Shown here: in pieces, positions 24,815-36,662 of the stretch
Numbering within the stretch: position 1 is the first letter of the stretch
How the letters are laid out: each line of letters begins with the position of its first letter
Virus record (IMG/VR): IMGVR_UViG_2713896792_000001
Location: 1-36,662 of that record
Length of the DNA: 36,662 nt
Source: a virus
Lineage: Duplodnaviria > Heunggongvirae > Uroviricota > Caudoviricetes
Reading direction: 5' to 3' (one strand)
Position numbers and translations under genes: made by a program
The notes under the pieces: generated by a model
What the model was told of the DNA's origin: nothing
The model's database searches: none
The model's input: only the letters and a program-made list of their open reading frames with translations

Positions 24815-25407
24815 GCGTTAGTTTCTCCACAGTCACGACACGCCACGGCGCCCGGAGCTGCACACTCGCGGGCGTCATTACTTTCTGAAATGCAAAAAAT
24901 TTTGTAGACCAGTGCTGCATGCTCCTGCAGCTTCGAAATTGAGAGGTACAGCTCGTCGTTAATTGCTGTCTTCTCATGCGGTTCCACTACACCGTCTTCA
25001 ATTGCTGAACGAATCTGTTTTGAATAACTGCCGATCTGTTCAATGACTTCCAGCAGGCGCTGGTTAATATCGGCGTTGTCCACATCCTCGACGTCAGGAA
25101 GAGACACAAAGACGCCATTTGCAGACTGCGCCACAGCGTCAGCAATGAAGTGAGTTCCACCAGCACGTTGCAAAATCATTGCCCATCCCAGCGGGAAAAT
25201 CTGATCGCCATCGGCACGAAGGCGGTTAAATAATGCGTTCTCTGTTACATCCAGCCAGTCAGCTGCTTCAGCGTAACCACCCGGCAACTTTGCGATAGTT
25301 TTTCTGACAGCTTTCACGTACCACTCAGGCTGTTTTTCTACTTTCCAGTGATGCTTACCCACGGTTAGCCTCATCGTTCTGTGGTTTCTGTTAATCGATT
25401 TATCCAT
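24811..25407 (-). CDS. CII-like regulatory protein (CP76/YdaT-like, candidate)
   Basis: Track ORF starts at GTG 25476 inside cro; first plausible ATG (Met24, 25407) overlaps cro stop (ATGGATAA); position immediately downstream of cro. Confidence 0.4.
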
Positions 25408-25600
25408 TAGATTTTTCATAAAGCTCAGGTTTAAATGGCAACCGTCCGCAAGTTCTATATGCAGCTTCTGCTGCACGTCCTTTTGGAATTAACTGGCCCG
25501 GACGGTTTCGCCACTGATAAACGGCTTCAGTTGTTATGCCGAAAAAAGCAGCAACTTTCTCAATACTGCCGAAGTAGCTTTCGATATCGTCAGTTGTCAT
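25400..25600 (-). CDS. Cro-like HTH repressor (YdaS family-like)
   Basis: 66-aa ORF divergent from cI, SD GGAGGG; HTH-like segment IEKVAAFFGITTEAVYQWRNR. Confidence 0.6.
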   Translation of the reverse strand: MTTDDIESYFGSIEKVAAFFGITTEAVYQWRNRPGQLIPKGRAAEAAYRTCGRLPFKPELYEKSNG

Positions 25601-25697
25601 ACGCCCTCCAAACTAAGTTTTATTAGATGCTAATTACAAATCTATCTTTGGTCAATAAAAACTAAGATTACTTAGTAATTAAAGAAATGGTGCTCCT
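25601..25697. promoter_or_regulatory. OR-like divergent promoter/operator region between cro and cI
   Basis: 97-bp AT-rich intergenic region containing ACTAAG (25612-25617) and inverted repeat CTAAG-ATTA-CTTAG (25662-25675). Confidence 0.5.
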
Positions 25698-26324
25698 ATG
25701 GAAACGGTTGGTCAGCGTATAAAAGCTCTGAGAAGAGTTACCAGAACGTCCCAGAAAGAATTGGGTAAATTTTGTGGAGTAAGCGACGTTGCTGTGGGGT
25801 ACTGGGAGAAAGACATCAATACCCCTGGTGGGGAGGCACTTTCGAAATTAGCGAAGTTCTTCAATACGTCAATAGATTACATTCTTTATGGTGCTGAGTT
25901 TGAAGGCAAACTCGTCACAAACATGCGCAGAGTTCCTGTAATATCGTGGGTTCAGGCTGGGCAGTTTACTGAGTGCAGGGCAGCAGAAGTGTTTAGTGAA
26001 GTGGACAAGTGGGTAGATACATCATTAAAGATTGGTGATAACTCATTTGCATTAGAGGTTAAAGGTGACTCCATGACTAACCCTAATGGCCTCCCAACAA
26101 TACCAGAAGGCGCAACAGTGATTGTAGATCCAGATGCAGAACCTCGTCATGGAAAAATAGTCATCGCTCGACTTGATGGAACAAACGAAGCTACAGTAAA
26201 AAAATTAGTCATCGATGGCCCTCAAAAGTTTTTAGTGCCATTAAATCCTCGGTATCCCAACATCCCTATCAATGGTAATTGCCTTATCATTGGTGTAGTC
26301 AAAGGAGTTCAATACGAACTCTAA
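25698..26324 (+). CDS. CI-type prophage repressor (HTH_XRE + S24 LexA-like peptidase)
   Basis: 208 aa; N-terminal HTH (QKELGKFCGVSDVAVGYWE), C-terminal S24 motifs EVKGDSMTNP (Ser) and ATVKKLV (Lys). Confidence 0.85.
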   Translation: METVGQRIKALRRVTRTSQKELGKFCGVSDVAVGYWEKDINTPGGEALSKLAKFFNTSIDYILYGAEFEGKLVTNMRRVPVISWVQAGQFTECRAAEVFSEVDKWVDTSLKIGDNSFALEVKGDSMTNPNGLPTIPEGATVIVDPDAEPRHGKIVIARLDGTNEATVKKLVIDGPQKFLVPLNPRYPNIPINGNCLIIGVVKGVQYEL

Positions 26325-26334
26325 GACCTCTCTT

Positions 26335-26410
26335 CTCTAACTAAGGCACCGAACTAAGAAAAGTTTGGTGTTTTCTCTTGCCATAATAACTAAGTTAAGT
26401 TAGATTTTAT
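26335..26410 (+). promoter_or_regulatory. OL/PL-like region: operator repeats and candidate early-left promoter
   Basis: Three copies of AACTAAG (26339-26345, 26352-26358, 26388-26394); -35 TTGCCA (26378-26383), 17-bp spacer, -10 TAGATT (26401-26406). Confidence 0.4.
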
Positions 26411-26493
26411 GTCAAAGATAACGAACAGGCAGGACGCCCACGAAGTAGCCGCCTGGGGCATATGAAGTCCAGGATGATTCGTTAGCAACAAAA

Positions 26494-26527
26494 AAGCGCC
26501 CTACAGGACGCTTAGCTCTTTAACAAT
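26494..26527 (+). promoter_or_regulatory. nut-like site: short hairpin followed by rrn-type boxA
   Basis: AAGCG-N10-CGCTT hairpin (26494-26513) then GCTCTTTAACAAT (26515-26527), which matches the rrn boxA consensus GCTCTTTAACAA. Confidence 0.35.
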
Positions 26528-26571
26528 CTGGTCCCCATCAACAAGTAACTGATAACTTGAGGAGATGTGAA

Positions 26572-26778
26572 ATGCACAAAACAGAACCCAAAATCGTCGC
26601 GCCTGGCTACACAGATGAGGAAATTTATGAGTGGATGACAAAGAAGCTGGCAGCTATAAACCAGCTTCGTGAAGTGCTGTCTTATCGACAGGAAACAATA
26701 GACTCCTTAAAAAAACTGGATCAGGAAATCACGGTTTTATCACAGGATGTTACTTTAGATATTGTGCAGACAAATTAG
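26572..26778 (+). CDS. small hypothetical protein (first early-left ORF)
   Basis: 68 aa from ATG 26572 with GAGGAG SD 7 nt upstream; not Arg-rich, so not an obvious N homolog. Confidence 0.35.
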   Translation: MHKTEPKIVAPGYTDEEIYEWMTKKLAAINQLREVLSYRQETIDSLKKLDQEITVLSQDVTLDIVQTN

Positions 26779-27184
26779 GATCCCATTCATTTTCGTCAAA
26801 ATCATCAAAGTGATGAATTTGTGATCTCCAGTCTCGATAATCTAAAAATTTCTGGGCGGTTACGCTTATTTTATCAAGTGTGAGTTCATCCTGAATTGAA
26901 AGAAGAAGTTCATCAAATTTCATCTCATTAATCTGTTTTGGCATCCAGTGATGCTTCATCAGAATAAGGTGAACCAGAGCCTTTTTCCCATTCAACTGAT
27001 TATAGGGAGTGCCGAATTTCTTCCGGTGCTCATGTAAGACAAGGTCCAAAAGAGTAAGTAATGTTGCCCTTGATTCAACTTTGCTTATTTCGACTGATGA
27101 CACTACCCCACTGATTTCAATGCCCCGATACTTTCCAACATTTTCACAGTGGGATTTGTACAGCGTATAGATATTACCGGACAT
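26750..27184 (-). CDS. hypothetical protein (immunity-region orphan, 144 aa)
   Basis: ATG at 27184 with AAAGGAAAAG upstream; AT-rich by inspection; convergent with and overlapping the 3' end of 26572-26778; no TM segments. Confidence 0.5.
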   Translation of the reverse strand: MSGNIYTLYKSHCENVGKYRGIEISGVVSSVEISKVESRATLLTLLDLVLHEHRKKFGTPYNQLNGKKALVHLILMKHHWMPKQINEMKFDELLLSIQDELTLDKISVTAQKFLDYRDWRSQIHHFDDFDENEWDPNLSAQYLK

Positions 27185-27471
27185 TTCTTTTCCTTTTGCG
27201 TTGTTGGGGATAACCAGATTAACCGAATCCTTGTTGTTGGGGAATAACTAGGTCCACCTCGCCTGATGTGGCTAAAAGCAGGCACATAACAGCTAAGTAT
27301 TTTCAACCAGAGAGAATCCTTAGCGTTGTGGTGAATGCGGCTCAGCGCACGCGGGTTAAGGTTGAGGCTGACAGTCGACCTTCTGTGGATACCCACCCGC
27401 CTGGTGTGCAACCTTCGCCAGGCACCGGGAGGCACCCGGCACCACAACTTTATGCTGTGTGTAGTCTTGGC

Positions 27472-27515
27472 GGTACCAGCTTGTACCCTTGCTTCCGGCT
27501 GGTACCGTCCTTTTT
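27472..27515 (+). terminator. intrinsic terminator-like hairpin in early-left leader
   Basis: GGTACCAGC (27472-27480) / GCTGGTACC (27498-27506) 9-bp stem, followed by GTCCTTTTTA. Confidence 0.4.
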
Positions 27516-27652
27516 ACAAAACAGAGAAGAGCATCACCGGACGACGGGCTCATAACCCAATCCATCCGGGCGGCAGTCACCGCAGGTGTTCTTCTCTGTT
27601 TTGTGGAGAAACTAACCGACCTTGCAGGGTCGATATGATGAGGAGCAGCAAA

Positions 27653-28015
27653 ATGGCTAGCGAACGCAGTACTGATGTGCAGGCATTTATCGGGGAGCTG
27701 GACGGCGGCGTATTTGAAACCAAAATCGGCGCAGTTCTCAGTGAAGTCGCTTCCGGTGTGATGAACACGAAAACCAAAGGTAAGGTCTCGCTCAACCTGG
27801 AAATCGAACCGTTTGATGAGAACCGAGTGAAAATCAAACACAAACTCTCATATGTTCGCCCGACTAACCGCGGGAAAATTTCCGAAGAAGACACCACCGA
27901 AACGCCGATGTATGTCAATCGCGGTGGTCGCCTGACTATTCTGCAGGAAGACCAGGGACAGTTACTGACTCTTGCCGGTGAACCTGACGGAAAACTCCGC
28001 GCAGCAGGTCGTTAA
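27653..28015 (+). CDS. yfdP: YfdP-like hypothetical protein
   Basis: 120 aa from Met107 of the track ORF (ATG 27653, SD GAGGAG); first of a 120/274/178/120-aa gene run matching the sizes and order I recall for CPS-53 yfdPQRS. Confidence 0.45.
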   Translation: MASERSTDVQAFIGELDGGVFETKIGAVLSEVASGVMNTKTKGKVSLNLEIEPFDENRVKIKHKLSYVRPTNRGKISEEDTTETPMYVNRGGRLTILQEDQGQLLTLAGEPDGKLRAAGR

Positions 28016-28080
28016 TATCGTTCTTAATAAACTGATTATTTATCTCATCACTGAATATCTTTATATAGTGAGGACTTATT

Positions 28081-28905
28081 ATGTCTCAGAACTTAGACGC
28101 AACCGCAATTAATCAAATCCATGCCCTTATTTCTGCTCAGGGTGTTAATGAAATTATCAGTAAGATTGGTGCCGATGCTGTGGCATTGCCTGAGAATTAC
28201 CGCATTCATGATCTGGAAAAATTTAATTTAAATCGTTTCCGTTTCCGTGGTGCGCTTTCCACTGCCAGCATCGATGACTTTACCCGTTATTCTAAAGATC
28301 TTGCAGATGAAGGCACCCGCTGCTTTATCGATGCCGATAATATGCGTGCCGTCAGTGTGCTTAACCTGGGTACTATTGATGAGCCAGGTCACGCAGATAA
28401 CACTGCCACTCTCAAACTGAAAAAGACAGCACCGTTCTCTGCTCTGTTGTCTGTTAACGGCGAGCGTAACTCCCAGAAGTCACTGGCAGAATGGATCGAA
28501 GACTGGGCCGACTACCTTGTGGGCTTTGATGCTAATGGTGATGCCATTCAGGCAACAAAAGCGGCTGCGGCAGTCCGTAAAATCACGATTGAAGCAAACC
28601 AGACCGCTGATTTTGAAGACAATGACTTCAGCGGCAAACGCTCCCTGATGGAGTCTGTCGAAGCGAAGACCAAAGATATTATGCCTGTGGCATTTGAATT
28701 TAAATGCGTTCCGTTTGAAGGCCTGAAAGAACGTCCGTTTAAATTACGCCTCAGCATTATCACTGGCGATCGTCCTGTACTGGTTCTGCGCATTATTCAG
28801 CTGGAAGCAGTACAGGAAGAAATGGCTAACGAATTTCGTGATCTGCTTGTTGAGAAATTCAAGGACAGCAAAGTAGAAACCTTTATTGGTACTTTCACCG
28901 CCTGA
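28081..28905 (+). CDS. yfdQ: YfdQ-like protein (DUF2303)
   Basis: 274-aa ORF, SD GTGAGGA; size and synteny match CPS-53 YfdQ (recollection). Confidence 0.55.
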
Positions 28906-28917
28906 TTTCATTACTGC

Positions 28918-28939
28918 AAATGCCCCTGCGGGGGCATTT
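28918..28939 (+). terminator. hairpin downstream of yfdQ-like gene (weak terminator or attenuator)
   Basis: AAATGCCCC-TGCG-GGGGCATTT perfect 9-bp stem; only a short T run follows. Confidence 0.3.
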
Positions 28940-29032
28940 ATGGAAACGTAATTGACTCAATAATCGCCGGATGGTGAGGGCTTCCTTTTACCAGAATTCA
29001 GCGCGGTGCAGCGCATATACGTGGAGAACAAA

Positions 29033-29569
29033 ATGTCATTTATTAAAACTTTTTCCGGGAAGCATTTTTATTATGACAGGATAAATAAAGACGACATCGT
29101 TATTAACGATATCGCGGTTTCTCTTTCAAATATCTGTCGCTTTGCAGGACATCTTTCACATTTCTACAGCGTCGCCCAACATGCGGTGCTTTGCAGCCAG
29201 CTGGTACCGCAGGAATTTGCTTTTGAAGCGTTAATGCATGATGCAACAGAAGCATATTGCCAGGACATCCCCGCACCACTGAAACGCCTTCTTCCTGACT
29301 ATAAACGGATGGAAGAAAAAATAGACGCCGTAATCCGTGAGAAATACGGGTTACCCCCGGTTATTAGCACGCCTGTGAAATATGCCGATCTCATCATGCT
29401 GGCAACCGAACGCCGCGATCTCGGGCTTGATGATGGCTCTTTCTGGCCTGTACTGGAAGGTATCCCGGCAACAGAGATGTTCAAAGTTATTCCACTGTCG
29501 CCAGGCCATGCCTATGGGATGTTTATGGAACGTTTTAACGAGTTATCGGAGTTACGCAAATGCGCATGA
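29033..29569 (+). CDS. yfdR: HD-domain 5'-deoxynucleotidase, YfdR-like
   Basis: 178 aa from Met10 of track ORF (SD GGAGAA); H...HD motif visible (AQHAV ... ALMHDATEAY). Confidence 0.6.
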   Translation: MSFIKTFSGKHFYYDRINKDDIVINDIAVSLSNICRFAGHLSHFYSVAQHAVLCSQLVPQEFAFEALMHDATEAYCQDIPAPLKRLLPDYKRMEEKIDAVIREKYGLPPVISTPVKYADLIMLATERRDLGLDDGSFWPVLEGIPATEMFKVIPLSPGHAYGMFMERFNELSELRKCA

Positions 29570-29922
29570 ATGTTTTCGAAATGGAAGGGGTTCTTCGCGG
29601 GAAATGTGTACCGCGAGATCTGAAAGTGAATGAAACAAATGCTGAGTATCTGGTACGTAAATTCGATGCGCTTGAAGCTAAATGTGCGGCTCTGGAAAAC
29701 AAAGTAATACCAGTGTCAGCTGAACTGCCGCCAGCAAATGAAAGTGTTCTGTTATTTGATGCTAATGGAGAAGGCTGGCTGATTGGCTGGCGTTCTCTCT
29801 GGTACACATGGGGGCAAAAAGAAACCGGAGAATGGCAGTGGACATTTAAGGTCGGGGACCTTGAAAACGTCAATATCACTCACTGGGCAGTAATGCCGAA
29901 AGCACCAGAGACTAAGAAATGA
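29560..29922 (+). CDS. yfdS: YfdS-like protein (DUF551-like)
   Basis: 120-aa ORF overlapping yfdR-like stop (alternative ATG at 29566 in an ATGA overlap); Trp-rich C-terminal region. Confidence 0.5.
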   Translation: MRMNVFEMEGVLRGKCVPRDLKVNETNAEYLVRKFDALEAKCAALENKVIPVSAELPPANESVLLFDANGEGWLIGWRSLWYTWGQKETGEWQWTFKVGDLENVNITHWAVMPKAPETKK

Positions 29923-30134
29923 GCGTGATAAAAACTCATACAGGAATTGTTATCACCCGAGACGGTGAAAAGCGGATGAAATTACATTCCACTGAAACGT
30001 CCTGGGTTGCCGGACGTTGTGAATCCTACGACAAAAAGACTGGTTACCGTTGGGGTGCGCCAAACATGCGTCGCCGTCTGCTCCTGGACAGCATCAGGCC
30101 AATAAAACAGGTAGCAACCAGAGAACAAAATTAA
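29919..30134 (+). CDS. small hypothetical protein
   Basis: 71-aa ORF whose ATG overlaps the upstream stop (ATGA). Confidence 0.4.
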   Translation: MSVIKTHTGIVITRDGEKRMKLHSTETSWVAGRCESYDKKTGYRWGAPNMRRRLLLDSIRPIKQVATREQN

Positions 30135-30193
30135 TTATCAGGACTGGAATTTGATATTACTGCCCGTGTGCAGCGGGCTAAGTGGAGAAACAT

Positions 30194-30400
30194 ATGCTGA
30201 ACCTCGATTGCGTTCCTATCTCAACTTATTGCAAAGAAACTGGCGAAACTCCTGAAGCAATAAACAAACGTGTACAGCGCGGTGTTTGGCGTGAAGGTGT
30301 TCAGGTTTTAAAGGTTGAAGGCGTTAAGGAGAGGTGGATTGATCTTAGTGAGGTTGCAAAATGGGCCAGACAAAATTGCTCAAACTACCGCGCGGCGTAA
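30194..30400 (+). CDS. excisionase (Xis-like)
   Basis: 68 aa from Met5 of track ORF (SD GGAGAA); winged-helix-like pattern and position immediately upstream of and overlapping int. Confidence 0.5.
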   Translation: MLNLDCVPISTYCKETGETPEAINKRVQRGVWREGVQVLKVEGVKERWIDLSEVAKWARQNCSNYRAA

Positions 30401-31557
30401 CAATCAGAAAACACCGTCAGGGAGAAACGATCAATATAACTTTCACCTACAAAGGAGTTAAATGTCGTGAGCCACTTTCCAATCTGGAAGTAACACCAAA
30501 GAACATTAAATACGCCGAGCGCACACTCGGCGAAATTCATAATAAGATCGAAAGGGGAACATTCATTTATGCGGAATATTTTCCCCGTTCTGCTCGTTTG
30601 AAAATTTTTGGTAATGCTGCTGCAGGCAAAACGGTAAAAATGTACCTGGACGAATACCTTGAAATCTGCGAAACGAGAAAACTTTCACCATCTACGATTG
30701 GTGGTTATAAAAAATGCCGTAGTGCGTTAGCCTCACTCCACATTTGCCCTGCAAGTGAATTAACACCAGCAATCCTGAAAGCGTGGATTCAAAGCCAGAA
30801 AACGACCTTAAAAACAATTCGCAACCAGTTATCTTTCCTGCGGTCAGCACTTGATGAAGCCGTAACCGATGGGGTACTTCAAATTAACCCCGTATCGTTG
30901 GTAACTGCTTCGCGCTACCAAAGTGATAAGTCAGAAGCAGAAAGCAGCTACGTGGTTGATCCGCTATCACCAACAGAAGTTGATGCATTACTAGCAGCAG
31001 CCGGAAACAAACAATGGGAGAATCTGTTCCGGTTCGCTATACATACAGGCCTGCGTAGTTCTGAATTATGTGCCCTTCGATGGCGTGATATCGACTTTGT
31101 TGGAAAAACTGCCCATGTCCAGAGCGCAAGTGTTGTCGGTGTTATCAAAGGGACAAAGACAAAAGCAGGTACTCGTAAAGTTGAACTGACAGAAGAGGCA
31201 ATGTTGGCGCTGATAAATCAGAAGCCATTTACATTCATGAAGGATGCTACTGTCTTTGAAGACCCAAAGACCAATAAGCCTTGGGCAAGTGCTGATGCAA
31301 TCAGGAAAAAAGCATGGGTGCCAACATTACGGAAAGCAGGTATTCGATACAGAAATCCATATCAAACTAGGCATACATTCGCCACCAGCCATATCAGCCG
31401 AGGAGCAAATCTGTTTTGGCTTGCAGCTCAAATGGGGCATAAAGGGCCGGAAATGCTTTTCAGGCATTATGGTTCGTATCTCGTAGACTATGATGGCAAG
31501 ACAGCTTGTAAGGACCAAGTATCAAAAAATCCGGAGAACATGAAAATTGAGAAGTAA
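30361..31557 (+). CDS. tyrosine integrase (lambda-type, with arm-binding N-domain)
   Basis: 398-aa ORF; C-terminal catalytic region RHTFATSHISRGANLFWLAAQMGHKGPEMLFRHYGSY (R, H-x-x-R, Y); overlaps xis 3' end. Confidence 0.8.
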   Translation: MGQTKLLKLPRGVTIRKHRQGETINITFTYKGVKCREPLSNLEVTPKNIKYAERTLGEIHNKIERGTFIYAEYFPRSARLKIFGNAAAGKTVKMYLDEYLEICETRKLSPSTIGGYKKCRSALASLHICPASELTPAILKAWIQSQKTTLKTIRNQLSFLRSALDEAVTDGVLQINPVSLVTASRYQSDKSEAESSYVVDPLSPTEVDALLAAAGNKQWENLFRFAIHTGLRSSELCALRWRDIDFVGKTAHVQSASVVGVIKGTKTKAGTRKVELTEEAMLALINQKPFTFMKDATVFEDPKTNKPWASADAIRKKAWVPTLRKAGIRYRNPYQTRHTFATSHISRGANLFWLAAQMGHKGPEMLFRHYGSYLVDYDGKTACKDQVSKNPENMKIEK

Positions 31558-31665
31558 AACGCCCGATAGCACTAGCCCCCCTTCGCAAAACAGTAAAGCT
31601 TACAAGAATGTTAGCAGGATGATGAGGATAGTGTACAATGGTTTTAGTGTGCATTAAATGCAAAG

Positions 31666-31700
31666 ATTTGACGTTTTTTGTCAAATTTGTGCTATAAAAT
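31666..31700 (+). promoter_or_regulatory. candidate promoter/operator of the AbiL-like operon
   Basis: Palindrome ATTTGAC-N7-GTCAAAT (31666-31686) and extended -10-like TGcTATAAA (31690-31698) about 50 bp upstream of the ATPase ATG. Confidence 0.3.
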
Positions 31701-31747
31701 CACTTTTAGTGGTTTTTAAGCTATGGGAAGTTAAAAGGGTATAAATT

Positions 31748-33013
31748 ATGTTGATTGAGTTTACAGTACAAAACTATAAATCTATTTCAGAGAAACAAAC
31801 ACTGAGTTTAGTTGCATCAAAACTTAACGATTTGCCTAATAATCTGTTCAGTATTGATGAACCTAAATCTCTTGAATTGCTTAAAAGTGCTGTGATTTAT
31901 GGCCCTAATGCTGCCGGAAAATCAAACATTATTAACGCTATTACAACTATGGCTGAACTTATTGTCCGGTCTGCTACAGGTTATAAAAGTGGTGATAAAC
32001 TTGATATCACGCCTTTTAGACTAGACTCAAAGAAGATTAATCAACCATCTGAATTTGAAATTAACTTTATTTCCGAAGGCATCAGATACCAGTATGGTTT
32101 TTCTGCAACAGAAGATTTTATTCACGACGAATGGTTATTTGCATTCCCCAAAGGCAGACCACAAAAATGGTTTTTACGTCTATGGGATGAAGAAAAACAA
32201 ACCCATGAATGGGAGTTGGGGCCATCGTTGACAGGAGAAAAACAAACATGGTTGAAATCAACCAGGCCTAATGCGCTCTTTCTTTCTACAGCGGTACAAT
32301 TAAACAGTGTACAACTAAAACCTGTATACGATTGGTTTTATTACAAAGTTAAATTTACTGAATTAACAGGTTGGGATAGTGATTACAGTGCAAAGCAATG
32401 CTTAAATGATAAGAAAGATGAGATTCTCAATTTTTTAAAAGCTGCCGATGTAGGTATTGATGACATTCATGTAACAAAAGAAAAATTCAATCCCAATGCT
32501 CTTCCTGATGATATGCCTGCAGCCATCAAGGAACTAGTGATTAAGAATATGCAAGGCAAGGAAGAATATGTCATTAAAACACTTCATAATAATGAGGATG
32601 GAGAGCCAATTCCATTCGATTTAAAAGATGAATCGCATGGAACTAGAAAAATCTTTAGTTTCGCGGGTCCCTTATCACATTCACTCGAGACAGGAAACAT
32701 CCTGTTTATTGATGAATTAAATGATAACTTACACCCCAAATTAGTTGAGTTTATTGTAGGTTTATTTCACGATAAAAATATCAATAAGAATGGTGCCCAG
32801 TTAATCTTTACAACTCATGAGACGTCTATTTTAAATCAAGATGTTTTCAGACGAGATCAGATTTGGTTTGTAGAAAAAGACAATTCAAAGCAAACAAATC
32901 TTTTCCCACTTACGGATTTTAGTCCAAGAAAAGGAAGGGAGAATTTAGAAGCTTCTTATCTTGACGGTAGATATGGGGCTTTACCACTCATTGGGAAATG
33001 GGAGAGATATTAA
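31748..33013 (+). CDS. AAA_21/ABC-type ATPase, AbiLi-like
   Basis: 421 aa; Walker A GPNAAGKSN, Walker B ILFIDELNDN, H-loop FTTHE; AT-rich gene; SD AAGGG. Confidence 0.7.
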   Translation: MLIEFTVQNYKSISEKQTLSLVASKLNDLPNNLFSIDEPKSLELLKSAVIYGPNAAGKSNIINAITTMAELIVRSATGYKSGDKLDITPFRLDSKKINQPSEFEINFISEGIRYQYGFSATEDFIHDEWLFAFPKGRPQKWFLRLWDEEKQTHEWELGPSLTGEKQTWLKSTRPNALFLSTAVQLNSVQLKPVYDWFYYKVKFTELTGWDSDYSAKQCLNDKKDEILNFLKAADVGIDDIHVTKEKFNPNALPDDMPAAIKELVIKNMQGKEEYVIKTLHNNEDGEPIPFDLKDESHGTRKIFSFAGPLSHSLETGNILFIDELNDNLHPKLVEFIVGLFHDKNINKNGAQLIFTTHETSILNQDVFRRDQIWFVEKDNSKQTNLFPLTDFSPRKGRENLEASYLDGRYGALPLIGKWERY

Positions 33014-33699
33014 TGGGAAGCGAAGATCTGTTCAAAAAAAGAAAGGCTCGGCGTAATAATGAATTCAAACGAGTTAGTAAAGCACGAGCTCAAATGAAGA
33101 AAATTCTTATCGTCTGTGAGGGAGAGAAGACTGAGCCCGCATATTTTACAGATTTTATAAAACATTGCCGTATAAGCACGGCAAGCATAGTTGAGATTTC
33201 TGGAGAGTGCGGCTCAAGCCCTATGAATGTGGTATCTTGGGCAAAAGAAAAATATAATACGGAAAAAAAAAGGAGCGACCCTTATGATAAGGTTTATTGT
33301 GTCTTTGATAGAGACGCTCACCCTAACTATGATGAAGCTCTTAGCAGGATTAATTCCTTAAATCCAAAAGGGATTTTTGTTGCTATAACTTCCATACCAT
33401 GTTTCGAGTACTGGCTGATACTACATTTTGGATACACCCGAAAATCATTTTCACCTCAGAAAGGCAAAAGTGAAGGCGCACAAATGCTAGCTGAGTTAAA
33501 AAAATACATGCCAGATTATGAGAAAAAGGCATCAGGTGTATTTAATAAATTGCAAGATCGGCTCGATACGGCATTAATCAATGCTAAAAGAGTCGAAGAT
33601 GCCGCCAAAAAAGACGGTTCGATAAATCCTTCAACTAAAGTTGGCGCTTTGATTACAGATCTAATTAACATTCGTGATGACTTTGAAAATGAGAAGTAA
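33013..33699 (+). CDS. RloB-like (TOPRIM-like) protein, AbiLii-like
   Basis: Start at Met6 of track ORF (TAATG overlap, SD GGGAGAG); N-terminal ILIVCEGEKTEPAYF motif characteristic of RloB-family proteins (recollection). Confidence 0.6.
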   Translation: MGSEDLFKKRKARRNNEFKRVSKARAQMKKILIVCEGEKTEPAYFTDFIKHCRISTASIVEISGECGSSPMNVVSWAKEKYNTEKKRSDPYDKVYCVFDRDAHPNYDEALSRINSLNPKGIFVAITSIPCFEYWLILHFGYTRKSFSPQKGKSEGAQMLAELKKYMPDYEKKASGVFNKLQDRLDTALINAKRVEDAAKKDGSINPSTKVGALITDLINIRDDFENEK

Positions 33700-33824
33700 A
33701 AATAACATGTCATGATGTAGCGACGGCAGCATGTTTAAGTTCAAATGGCAAAGTGTACGCGAAGTATACGCGGATCAAAAACAATAGAAAAAACGTATAT
33801 TTTACAAAAGATTATATAAATTTT

Positions 33825-33855
33825 GACGCGGGTTCAACTCCCGCCAGCTCCACCA
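33825..33855 (+). other. ssrA: attachment-site core: 3'-terminal 31 nt of the tmRNA gene ssrA (fragment only)
   Basis: GACGCGGGTTCAACTCCCGCCAGCTCCACCA is identical to the 3' end of E. coli ssrA as I recall it; the upstream sequence is not ssrA. Confidence 0.6.
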
Positions 33856-33901
33856 AAATTCTCCATCGGTGATTACCAGAGTCATCCGATGAAGTCCTAA
33901 G

Positions 33902-33935
33902 AGCCCGCACGGCGCAAGCCCTGCGGGCTTTTTTG
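33902..33935 (+). terminator. rho-independent terminator (native ssrA terminator)
   Basis: AGCCCGCA ... TGCGGGCT stem followed by TTTTTT. Confidence 0.55.
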
Positions 33936-33986
33936 TGCCCTCAATTTGTCCCGCGAAGTCCGAAGAAAACTAATTAAATCCGATCC

Positions 33987-34044
33987 TTTTAGGCACCTTG
34001 TTAGGCACCTCATAAAGCTTTATTGTTTTTTGAGGTGCCTAAAA
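33987..34044. repeat. TAGGCACC repeat cluster upstream of intA-like gene (candidate protein-binding sites)
   Basis: Direct repeats TTTTAGGCACCT / TTGTTAGGCACCTCA and inverted copy TGAGGTGCCTAAAA. Confidence 0.35.
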
Positions 34045-34060
34045 CTATGGAAACCCGGCA

Positions 34061-35302
34061 ATGGCAAGACAAACCAAACCTCTATCCGTTAAAGAAATAG
34101 AATCAGCCAAACCCAAGGAGGCGGACTACGTTCTCTATGATGGCGATGGCCTTGAGCTACTCATTAAATCCAGCGGGAGTAAAATCTGGCAGTTTCGCTA
34201 CATTCGCCCTGTCACCAAGAAACGAGCAAAGAAGAGCATAGGCTCCTACCCGTCAGTTACCCTTGCCGATGCCAGAAACTACCGTGCAGAGTCCCGCTCA
34301 CTACTGGCTAAACAGATCGATCCGCAGGAACATCAGCAAGAACAATTGCGCAGTTCGCTGGAAGCCAAAACCAACACTTTCCAACTCGTAGCTGAACGTT
34401 GGTGGAATGTGAAGAAAGCCAGTGTGACAGAGGACTATGCGGAAGATATCTGGCGCTCTCTTGAAAGAGACGTCTTTCCTGCGATTGGCGACGTTAGCGT
34501 TACAGATATTAAAGCTCATACACTGGTTCAGGCCGTACAACCGGTTCAGGCCAGAGGAGCACTGGAAACTGTTCGTCGCCTGTGCCAACGTATTAATGAG
34601 GTCATGATCTATGCCCAGAACACAGGGCTGATTGATGCTGTTCCCAGCGTTAATATCGGTAAAGCCTTCGAGAAGCCTCAGAAAAAGAACATGCCCAGCA
34701 TTCGACCGGATCAGCTACCTCAGTTAATGCAGACGATGCGAACAGCCAGCATTAGCCTTTCCACACGCTGCCTGTTCATGTGGCAACTTCTTACTATTAC
34801 CCGCCCTGCCGAAGCGGCTGAAGCTCTCTGGGAAGAGGTAGACATAGAAGCGCGAGAGTGGAAGATTCCTGCAGCACGCATGAAAATGAACCGCGACCAT
34901 ACTGTTCCATTGTCAGATGAAGCAATTGCGATACTAGAGATGATGAAGCCGTTAAGTGGAAATCGAGAATTTATCTTTCCCAGCCGCATCAAGCCAAACC
35001 AGCCGATGAACAGTCAGACCGTAAACGCATCGCTAAAACGCGCAGGTTTTGGTGGGGTGCTCGTTTCACACGGCCTGCGATCTATCGCCAGTACAGCCCT
35101 TAATGAGCAGGGATTTCCACCTGATGTTATTGAGGCTGCACTTGCTCATGTGGATAAGAATGAGGTTCGTCGTGCGTATAACCGTAGTGATTATCTTGAG
35201 CAGCGACGGCCTATGATGCAGTGGTGGGCTGATTTTGTGATGGCTGCAGATCACGGTAGTATGATTGAAGGAGGGATAAAGGCAATGCGGTTAGTTGGAT
35301 GA
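34061..35302 (+). CDS. intA: P4-family tyrosine integrase, CP4-57 IntA-like
   Basis: 413-aa ORF directly downstream of the ssrA 3' end, as intA is in E. coli K-12; N-terminus MARQTKPL..YDGDGLELLIKSSGSK.WQFRY and C-terminus VSHGLRSIASTALNEQGFPPDVIEAALAH match IntA as recalled. Confidence 0.8.
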   Translation: MARQTKPLSVKEIESAKPKEADYVLYDGDGLELLIKSSGSKIWQFRYIRPVTKKRAKKSIGSYPSVTLADARNYRAESRSLLAKQIDPQEHQQEQLRSSLEAKTNTFQLVAERWWNVKKASVTEDYAEDIWRSLERDVFPAIGDVSVTDIKAHTLVQAVQPVQARGALETVRRLCQRINEVMIYAQNTGLIDAVPSVNIGKAFEKPQKKNMPSIRPDQLPQLMQTMRTASISLSTRCLFMWQLLTITRPAEAAEALWEEVDIEAREWKIPAARMKMNRDHTVPLSDEAIAILEMMKPLSGNREFIFPSRIKPNQPMNSQTVNASLKRAGFGGVLVSHGLRSIASTALNEQGFPPDVIEAALAHVDKNEVRRAYNRSDYLEQRRPMMQWWADFVMAADHGSMIEGGIKAMRLVG

Positions 35303-35382
35303 CATGTCGTAGCTAAAACCCGTTCTGTTTTTGGGTAGATTAACCTGAAGGTCTGCAATTTTAAATGACGCTGAAAGAAGTT

Positions 35383-35410
35383 AAACCCTGCTCTTAAGCA
35401 GGGTTTTTAT
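35383..35410 (+). terminator. rho-independent terminator downstream of intA-like gene
   Basis: AAACCCTGCT-CTTA-AGCAGGGTTT 10-bp stem followed by TTAT. Confidence 0.45.
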
Positions 35411-35512
35411 GATTTATTCTAATTTTGGTTTTGAATCTTTCTGACCTGCTCCCCGTTGATTAGTACACCCCGATGTTAGTAATGTCTTCATAAGCCACAT
35501 GAGGACATCCCC

Positions 35513-35776
35513 ATGAAGAAGCGTTTTTCCGACGAACAGATCATCAGTATTCTCCGCGAAGCCGAAGCTGGGGTACCCGCCCGTGAACTCTGCCGCAAGC
35601 ATGCCATTTCCGATGCCACGTTTTACACCTGGCGTAAGAAGTATGGCGGTATGGAGGTGCCTGAAGTTAAGCGCCTGAAGTCGCTTGAGGAAGAGAACGC
35701 CAGACTCAAGAAGCTGCTTGCCGAAGCCATGCTGGATAAAGAGGCGCTTCAGGTGGCTCTTGGGCGAAAGTACTGA
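35513..35776 (+). CDS. IS3-family transposase OrfA (HTH)
   Basis: 87 aa; HTH plus leucine-zipper-like C-terminus ([26 protein letters not shown]). Confidence 0.8.
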
Positions 35777-35799
35777 CGACAGACCAGAAGCGGGAAGCC

Positions 35800-36633
35800 G
35801 TGATGTTGATGTGTGATGCGACCGGTCTGTCGCAACGTCGTGCCTGCAGGCTTACAGGTTTATCCCTGTCGACCTGCCGCTATGAGGCTCACCGTCCGGC
35901 TGCTGATGCGCATTTATCAGGGCGCATCACTGAGCTGGCACTGGAGCGCAGGCGTTTTGGCTACCGTCGTATTTGGCAGTTGCTGCGCCGTGAAGGGCTT
36001 CATGTTAATCATAAGCGCGTGTACCGGCTTTATCACCTCAGTGGCCTGGGCGTAAAACGCAGAAGACGTCGTAAAGGGCTGGCAACAGAACGTCTGCCGC
36101 TGCTCCGTCCGGCGGCGCCCAATCTGACCTGGTCGATGGATTTCGTCATGGACGCACTTTCCACCGGTCGCAGGATCAAGTGTCTTACCTGCGTCGATGA
36201 TTTCACAAAGGAATGCCTGACGGTCACTGTTGCCTTTGGGATTTCAGGCGTTCAGGTCACGCGTATTCTGGACAGCATTGCACTGTTTCGAGGCTATCCG
36301 GCGACGATAAGAACTGACCAGGGGCCGGAGTTCACTTGCCGTGCACTGGATCAATGGGCCTTTGAGCATGGTGTTGAGTTGCGCTTAATCCAGCCGGGCA
36401 AGCCAACGCAGAACGGATTTATTGAGAGCTTTAACGGACGATTTCGCGATGAATGTTTGAATGAGCACTGGTTCAGCGATATCGTTCATGCCAGGAAAAT
36501 TATTAATGACTGGCGGCAGGATTATAACGAATGCCGCCCGCACTCCACGCTGAATTATCAGACACCGTCTGAATTTGCAGCGGGCTGGAGAAAGGGTCAT
36601 TCTGAGAATGAAGATTCCGACGTTACTAACTGA
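35800..36633 (+). CDS. IS3-family transposase OrfB (DDE/rve catalytic domain)
   Basis: 277 aa in the -1 frame relative to orfA; that frame is open from 35740, so an OrfAB fusion by -1 frameshifting is possible; DDE-type motifs ([23 protein letters not shown]). Confidence 0.8.
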
Positions 36634-36662
36634 GTGTTGTATCTAATCGTGGGGGCAGGTCA

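Follow-up and report, generated by a model that had tools for sequence, protein, structure and literature searches.

An exact 31-nucleotide ssrA 3' fragment as the probable attR core of a prophage with a phiNP/LLS-type integrase next to a CP4-57-type island

The viral DNA considered here, referred to as the window, is a stretch of 36,662 nucleotides (positions 1 to 36,662 of the IMG/VR record IMGVR_UViG_2713896792_000001, Caudoviricetes). At positions 33825-33855 it carries the sequence GACGCGGGTTCAACTCCCGCCAGCTCCACCA, which exactly matches the last 31 nt (333-363) of the 363-nt ssrA gene, the gene for transfer-messenger RNA (tmRNA), as annotated in E. coli 1506D011, PEC122 and K-12. It is highly probable that this segment represents the core of the right attachment site (attR) of a temperate prophage integrated in the T-arm/3' end of ssrA, and a full integration scheme can be proposed for it. 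The assignment is based on observed sequence and gene identities, on junctions compared between genomes and on the conservation of repeats.

No tmRNA gene is detected in the window by ARAGORN or by Rfam at the gathering threshold. At a permissive threshold the tmRNA model reaches 31 bits (gathering score 47), with a confident alignment for the last ~31 nt only. An earlier note on this DNA, made from the letters alone, had stated that only the final 31 nt of ssrA are present and that the sequence directly upstream is phage or cargo. Both statements stand: the alignment is exact, the rest of ssrA does not occur in the window, and a cargo gene of the RloB/AbiLii family ends at 33699, followed by a 125-nt A+T-rich arm that leads to the core. 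The search for a second core that the note had suggested returns a single copy within the window, even when three mismatches are allowed, and a match is found in 0 of 100 shuffles. To the left of the 31-mer a degenerate likeness to ssrA extends for ~6 nt further (AATTT-TGACG vs AATTTCGGACG), and on the right the identity with the left attachment site (attL) of relatives takes in an extra A after the CCA, giving 32 nt. The structure of the fragment, assigned from the Rfam tmRNA structure line of the full ssrA, is as follows:

33825-33855, + strand: ssrA 3' fragment, probable prophage attR core (exact match to ssrA 333-363)
33825-33827, + strand: leading bases GAC
33828-33832, + strand: 5' half of the T-stem, GCGGG
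33833-33839, + strand: T-loop, TTCAACT
33840-33844, + strand: 3' half of the T-stem, CCCGC
33845-33851, + strand: 3' strand of the acceptor stem, CAGCTCC
33852-33855, + strand: discriminator base and CCA (ACCA)

The comparison with related genomes gives this fragment its meaning. In E. coli 1506D011 (NZ_CP149559), where window positions 33300-34500 are matched at 99.9% identity, an intact ssrA is followed by a 45 kb prophage, the fragment and a P4-type integrase gene. The same succession of intact ssrA, prophage, fragment and P4-type integrase gene is present in E. coli PEC122 (NZ_CM168021), which shares window positions 1-25000 at 99.3% identity. In both genomes the ssrA at attL continues into ATCATGATTGGACGG..., the very sequence that follows the core in LLS's phage attachment site (attP). 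The genome of LLS as a free phage contains this attP in contiguous form, as P arm, core and P' arm, annotated as 'tmRNA pseudogene' (PQ299149). A scan of one genome per species yielded 21 homologous integrase loci from at least 15 genera of Enterobacterales; in 19 of them an ssrA fragment lies downstream of int in the same orientation. Sites lacking the phage are also found. In other E. coli, ssrA is directly followed by the same island as in the window, homology with the window beginning at ~33819, and the wholly empty site, with the ssrA flank uninterrupted, occurs in 2520 of 5426 complete genomes. Taking into account the junctions of the two genomes, the 19 loci, the attP of LLS, and the island-only and empty sites, the fragment is assigned as the prophage attR core.

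This arrangement corresponds to the Islander signature of an element integrated in a tDNA (tRNA or tmRNA gene): an intact gene is followed by the island and then by a displaced 3' fragment that points the same way, and every member of an array contributes one integrase and one such fragment (PMC4383910). The window displays the displaced 3' fragment of the target gene at the end of the element, with an integrase gene of its own upstream, and the intact ssrA in the same orientation is present in the two closest complete genomes. As ssrA would lie outside the window, an intact copy, together with attL, is a prediction for this particular genome; the left end of the prophage and attL would be located beyond the window start.

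The integration genes and the attR arm of the prophage comprise:

30182-30400, + strand: excisionase gene xis, 72 amino acids, overlapping the start of int (phrog_2917, E 1.6e-45)
30361-31557, + strand: prophage tyrosine integrase gene int, 398 amino acids, phiNP/LLS type, transcribed towards the att site (Pfam)
33751-33772, + strand: tandem 11-nt repeats AAGTGTACGCG and AAGTATACGCG, both exact, probable arm-type sites of Int in the P arm
33773-33824, + strand: A+T-rich spacer of 52 nt, 85% A+T, its length conserved among relatives

The prophage integrase (Int) contains the Pfam domains Arm-DNA-bind_2 (5e-23) and Phage_integrase, and is 92% identical to phiNP Int, 86% to LLS Int, 98% to the Int of the PEC122 prophage and 69% to that of phage LMessi. 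Its gene is located 2.3 kb upstream of the ssrA fragment. The excisionase (Xis) is 88% identical to LLS gp33, a putative excisionase. Thus, a homologous Int, an ssrA core downstream of int in the same orientation and an xis overlapping int, which together make up the ssrA integration module of the phiNP/LLS type, are all present.

Within the arm, the tandem 11-mers are probably the arm-type sites of the prophage Int, as suggested by their conserved position, by the co-variation of the motifs on the two arms and by the Arm-DNA-bind_2 domain of the enzyme. An equivalent tandem pair is found in ~23 related P arms at a fixed frame, -82 to -61 from GGTTCAAC, with differing flanking sequence, and in cargo-free relatives it begins directly after the int stop codon. 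In the P' arm a pair of the same motif, AAGGATACGCA/AAGGAGCCGCG, is placed ~110 nt after the CCA and is followed by a terminator. This P'-arm pair occurs in LLS, 1506D011 and PEC122, and LMessi likewise has a P'-arm pair. Since LMessi carries ATGCAC-type pairs on both arms, the arm motif changes on both arms together. Repeated arm-type motifs at conserved distances from the core are consequently present on both arms among the relatives, the P' arm being provided by these relatives. With regard to the spacer, a sequence weakly resembling a site for integration host factor (IHF), TTACAAAAGATTA, can be read at 33801-33813. Among 22 related arms, the IHF consensus WATCAANNNNTTR is found at -29, exactly in five and with one mismatch in six more; the participation of IHF at the spacer is therefore conceivable on these grounds.

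The following scheme would account for the observed junction. The phage attP would carry a copy of the ssrA 3' end between the P arm and the P' arm, and Int would recombine this copy with ssrA. The crossover probably occurs within or beside the 7-nt T-loop TTCAACT, which the inverted T-stem halves GCGGG and CCCGC enclose, with the loop providing a putative 7-bp overlap and the stem halves acting as candidate core-type sites. In phiNP and in a Trabulsiella locus, the phage side differs from ssrA up to the third base of the 5' T-stem (GCTGG), so that the exchange should lie to the right of that base; GCGGG-TTCAACT-CCCGC is the only symmetric element to the right of it, which points to the T-loop as the overlap. 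Williams (2002) reportedly described such a T-loop sublocation. A summary of that sublocation is given elsewhere (bioRxiv 10.1101/2020.11.02.365908). Upon exchange, ssrA would be made whole by the phage copy at the far junction, attL, which would lie past the window start, while its former 3' end would remain here as an orphan of 31 nt attached to the phage P arm. The two tandem 11-nt sites would serve Int through its Arm-DNA-bind_2 domain; excision would depend on Int, Xis and probably IHF, and the restored bacterial attachment site (attB) would be ssrA joined to AAATTCTCC.... The AbiL two-gene defence cargo is inserted between int and the arm sites. Because the phage attB would lie wholly inside ssrA, integration should proceed regardless of the downstream DNA, which here is a CP4-57/P4-type island with an integrase that acts on the final ~15 nt of ssrA.

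Several points weigh against this assignment and its scheme. The window holds neither an intact ssrA nor attL, and the boundary pair is seen in relatives, not here. No complete E. coli genome in the collection contains the whole window, both halves of which were searched; the best covers 77% of positions 25001-36662. The window looks like a contig breaking at repeats, namely the insertion sequence ISSen4 on the right and a tail-fibre gene on the left. The arm motif is loosely conserved in sequence, and its specificity is thus only presumed. No occurrence of the IHF consensus with at most one mismatch was found by the scan of the window, where the best match has two mismatches. Finally, the position of the crossover, the binding of Int to the 11-mers and the use of IHF are deduced from the sequence.

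Immediately to the right of the core, the window continues into an island of the CP4-57 type:

33856-33989, + strand: island leader with a rho-independent terminator (hairpin and T-run at 33902-33935), identified by identity to K-12 and by a terminator-like site
33990 and 34002 (+ strand, direct) and 34034-34041 (- strand, inverted): three TAGGCACC repeats upstream of the island integrase gene, 3 of the 4 copies in the window
34061-35302, + strand: P4/CP4-57-type tyrosine integrase gene (IntA-like), 413 amino acids, with the Pfam domains Arm-DNA-bind_3, Phage_int_M and Phage_integrase

Both a P4-type integrase gene directly downstream of the ssrA 3' end and a K-12-like leader after the CCA are therefore present. 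Of the first 135 nt after the CCA, 133 are identical to the sequence downstream of ssrA in K-12, hairpin included, and in at least ten genera this leader likewise comes after the phage attR. The earlier note had described this terminator as the native one of ssrA. It is indeed the terminator found after ssrA in K-12, at which transcripts of that gene end, but the K-12 annotation puts it inside CP4-57, and it is island-borne rather than native; the ancestral ssrA flank in E. coli is a different sequence, ATCATGATTGG..., which has its own terminator and is uninterrupted in the 2520 genomes mentioned above. Likewise, the integrase gene had been described as IntA-like and exactly as in K-12. The first part is borne out by 85% amino acid identity to K-12 IntA over the full 413 residues, the second is not, as the nucleotide identity is 79% over 1.4 kb. 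Candidate arm-type repeats had been proposed on both sides of the core; this can be retained for the upstream 11-mers, which belong to the prophage, and not for the downstream TAGGCACC repeats, which belong to the island. The claim of a prophage in the ssrA 3' end beside a P4-family island is supported by Int and by the junctions of the relatives, with the exception of the term 'pre-existing', since both orders of insertion give the same structure.

The TAGGCACC motif occurs four times in the window, against 0.84 expected, and three of the copies fall within 33990-34041. The triple layout is conserved after the phage attR in nine related loci from several genera. At the same positions K-12 has TAGGCCCA twice and an inverted TGGGCCTA, so that all three copies change together with the type of integrase. 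The repeats are probably binding sites of the island integrase (arm sites) or an operator of its gene. A role as prophage arm sites was considered and rejected: the repeats are present downstream of ssrA in loci that bear an island, irrespective of the phage, and vary in step with the type of island integrase, two properties which assign them to the island.

According to the K-12 annotation, CP4-57 starts 15 nt before the ssrA end and ends just before psaA, which in K-12 is a 14-nt pseudo-ssrA, CCGCCAGCCCACCA. Judged from this annotated start, the last 15 nt of the fragment (33841-33855) are also the attL core of the CP4-57-type island, and the orphan fragment would thus serve two elements. 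A possible gene for the Salmonella small RNA IsrM at 33846-33934 was discarded, as the weak Rfam match (32 bits vs a gathering score of 376) covers only the terminator of the island leader. The PEC122 island leader is closer to the 3' part of IsrM than the window leader is.

Among the alternatives to be weighed, the one that survives best concerns the order of events. The prophage may have entered an unoccupied ssrA, with the island inserting afterwards into the orphan fragment at attR, so that the island would not be 'pre-existing'. The orphan fragment does hold the full 15-nt segment that the K-12 annotation gives to the CP4-57 end, both histories predict exactly the observed sequence, and the phage is found without the island in the Mixta and Xenorhabdus loci, which indicates that it does not need the island. 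Nevertheless, this history is considered rather unlikely. An intact ssrA with the island leader right behind it is very common in E. coli; this leader and the integrase gene are present in 2113 of the 5426 genomes, many of them with ssrA annotated under the match, whereas the specific phage junction is rare, being covered to at least 80% in five genomes. Moreover, phiNP integrates into MG1655, which already carries CP4-57 (PMC6456863), so that the opposite order, island first, is demonstrably possible. Insertion of the island after the phage would presumably also require a P4-type integrase to accept a 31-nt orphan as attB without the rest of ssrA. The island-first order is favoured by nothing more than prevalence and the lysogenisation of CP4-57-bearing K-12 by phiNP, the structure being the same for both orders.

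It is considerably less probable that the prophage is a grounded relic whose attL or left end has been lost or rearranged, the fragment no longer being a working recombination site. Such a fate would fit with a left end that falls outside the window, with window ends that both coincide with rearrangement-promoting repeat elements, and with the closest relative for the junction, in which the right end of the island has been lost to IS3 elements. Against it speak the intact state of int, xis, the arm repeats and the core, the identity of the 31-mer with ssrA, and an apparently complete structural, lysis and regulatory set that is 99.3% identical to that of a prophage bounded by intact ssrA. The prophage in ssrA would presumably still be competent for excision today. 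The last alternative, a chance or unrelated match (a leftover of an ssrA deletion or a tRNA-like sequence, with no site-specific junction), has nothing in its favour apart from the absence of the remaining ssrA from the window and is refuted by the comparative data, since none of the shuffles matched even with three mismatches, the left homology boundary coincides with that of attP in LLS and phiNP as free phages and is shared by 19 independent loci, and the right flank runs on just as it does behind ssrA in K-12.

Tandem arrays of islands at tRNA and tmRNA genes are reportedly the subject of the work of Williams (2002, and 2003, 'Traffic at the tmRNA gene'). The window differs from such tDNA arrays in nothing of kind and is one more instance of them. 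The T-loop and 3'-end sublocations serve different subfamilies of integrases. The tmRNA gene is the most enriched integration target (PMC4383910).

A close known parallel to the window is provided by phiNP, a temperate myovirus of Citrobacter rodentium and E. coli, whose attP comprises 25 bp of the ssrA 3' end, GGTTCAAC...CCACCA (Petty 2011; Magaziner 2019, PMC6456863), and whose integration into ssrA of C. rodentium and E. coli K-12 MG1655 was shown experimentally (PMC6456863). In addition to the 92% identical Int, the two share an xis upstream of int, the core GGTTCAACTCCCGCCAGCTCCACCA, 11-mers at the same distance from the core and cargo between int and the arm; as phiNP lysogenises K-12, which bears CP4-57 (PMC6456863), it gives rise to the same tandem of phage and island. 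In contrast, the identity with ssrA extends over 31 nt in the window and 25 in phiNP, because the phage side of the window happens to match six more bases. The cargo is AbiL in the window and a single AAA ATPase in phiNP, the arm 11-mers differ (AAGTRTACGCG against AAAGMGCCGYA), and the rest of the phage, an SfV/SfIV-like mosaic, is unlike phiNP.

In the case of LLS, a 29-bp stretch copying the 3' end of ssrA served to deduce attP, and its authors point out that CP4-57 targets this gene by means of an unrelated integrase (PMC12315714). LLS resembles the window in Int (86%) and Xis (88%), and its P' arm is the same as the sequence after ssrA in lysogens. It differs in being a lambdoid phage of siphovirus type with different structural genes, a different cargo gene and a different P-arm sequence.

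The island, in turn, is comparable to CP4-57, a cryptic prophage of E. coli K-12 and a P4-type island at ssrA (Kirby 1994; Wang 2009; PMC10107115). The leader (133/135), the integrase (85%, with the same domain set) and the layout of the triple repeat upstream of its gene are alike. The window island differs by its repeat, TAGGCACC and not TAGGCCCA, by a diverged N-terminus of the integrase and by an ISSen4 copy 140 bp after the integrase gene. The remainder of the island, with any psaA-like attR of 14-15 nt and any cargo such as alpA, would lie beyond the window, whose last 1.2 kb are taken up by ISSen4. The attL core of the window island is an orphan fragment, whereas that of K-12 CP4-57 lies in the functional ssrA. 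In K-12, excision of CP4-57 deletes U357 of the functional tmRNA and thereby inactivates it (PMC10107115). As the attL core of the window island is the orphan, its excision should not delete U357 of a functional tmRNA. In Leclercia (locus L006, 8260-8284), Atlantibacter (locus L007, 4028-4052) and Citrobacter freundii (locus L010, 8260-8284), the attR fragment has a 3' end with one base deleted, CCAGCCCACCA, identical to K-12 psaA and to the delta-U357 form of ssrA that results when CP4-57 excises. In these three, the phage may have integrated into a delta-U357 ssrA and repaired it.

The remaining features of the window are the body of the prophage, its cargo genes and the right-hand insertion sequence:

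1-33855, no strand assigned: right-hand ~34 kb of the prophage, an SfV/SfIV-like mosaic myovirus in which xis-int comes after the tail, head, terminase, lysis, Q, replication and immunity genes
31748-33013, + strand: AbiLi-like AAA ATPase gene, cargo between int and the att arm (PADLOC AbiLi 4e-101; Pfam AAA_21 1e-38)
32998-33699, + strand: AbiLii/RloB-family protein gene, second cargo gene (Pfam RloB 1e-39; PADLOC AbiLii 3e-29)
35442-36662, + strand: complete ISSen4 (IS3 family), 1221 bp, 140 bp after the island integrase stop, 100% identical to annotated ISSen4

The PEC122 prophage that matches positions 1-25000 has annotated genes for tail, head, terminase, lysis, Q and replication. The structural genes of SfV are 98% identical to the prophage, and the early genes of SfIV 95-96%. 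The Mu Gp48-like baseplate protein (308-892, - strand) is found with identical sequence in thousands of prophages at other sites and with other integrases (27633 index blocks), an example of how mosaic the structural module is. Positions 31558-33750, which separate int from the arm-type sites, form a variable slot, occupied here by the AbiLi/AbiLii defence cargo, by DarTG in PEC122, by an AAA ATPase in phiNP and by a hypothetical gene in LLS, and empty in more than ten relatives. The C-terminus of Int diverges after about residue 382, the point at which the cargo starts.

ISSen4 is bounded by the inverted repeats TGACCTGC... at both ends, and homology with an IS-free relative stops at 35442. 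Rfam places an IS1222 frameshift element at 35743-35860. The insertion is absent from a relative which is otherwise 99.96% identical. Since the final base of the window is also that of the right inverted repeat, the window is probably a contig broken at a repeat. On the left, the window edge (1-304) cuts a tail-fibre gene, and the homologue in PEC122 adjoins alternative fibre genes and a pinE-type invertase; this repeat-prone spot is likewise consistent with a contig break. In NZ_CP149559 (1105000-1153800), the closest relative for the junction, the CP4-57-type island is riddled with IS3 copies, ypjA is truncated and no psaA-like right end is found in the island, which makes this island probably immobile.

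A further observation concerns the P' arm. Over ~120 nt, including the tandem AAGGATACGCA/AAGGAGCCGCG, the phage P' arm shares homology with the sequence resident 3' of ssrA in E. coli, and this homology ends right after the arm motifs. In K-12 the corresponding flank is found just beyond psaA, at the right end of CP4-57 (2777986-2778110). The view that the flank ATCATGATTGG... is purely phage-derived, with the K-12 copy after psaA as a phage relic, was rejected, since its presence in 2520 island-free genomes identifies it as the resident flank of the species.

From this homology a tentative proposal can be derived, which is on balance doubtful: the 'bacterial' attB region would itself carry phage-type arm sites, a neighbouring island would remove that homology, and the phage would uncouple the excision of the island from the tmRNA switch. 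If this is true, an attR formed at an empty site would resemble attP, and an adjoining island could change the efficiency or the directionality of phage excision. The phage would also shift the attL core of the island off the functional ssrA, so that island excision would be uncoupled from the tmRNA-inactivating delta-U357 switch.

The arrangement as such is already known, ssrA being the best-known hotspot for tandem integrative elements and the integrase/att family being familiar from phiNP and LLS. Only three points are mildly new: the arm sites as defined by comparison, the slot for varying defence genes that separates int from the arm, and the homology of the P' arm with the resident ssrA flank. 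The junction gives precisely the right boundary of a prophage that is probably inducible and, at the same time, the left boundary of a second island, and it is useful for the annotation of both and for the design of excision assays by polymerase chain reaction.

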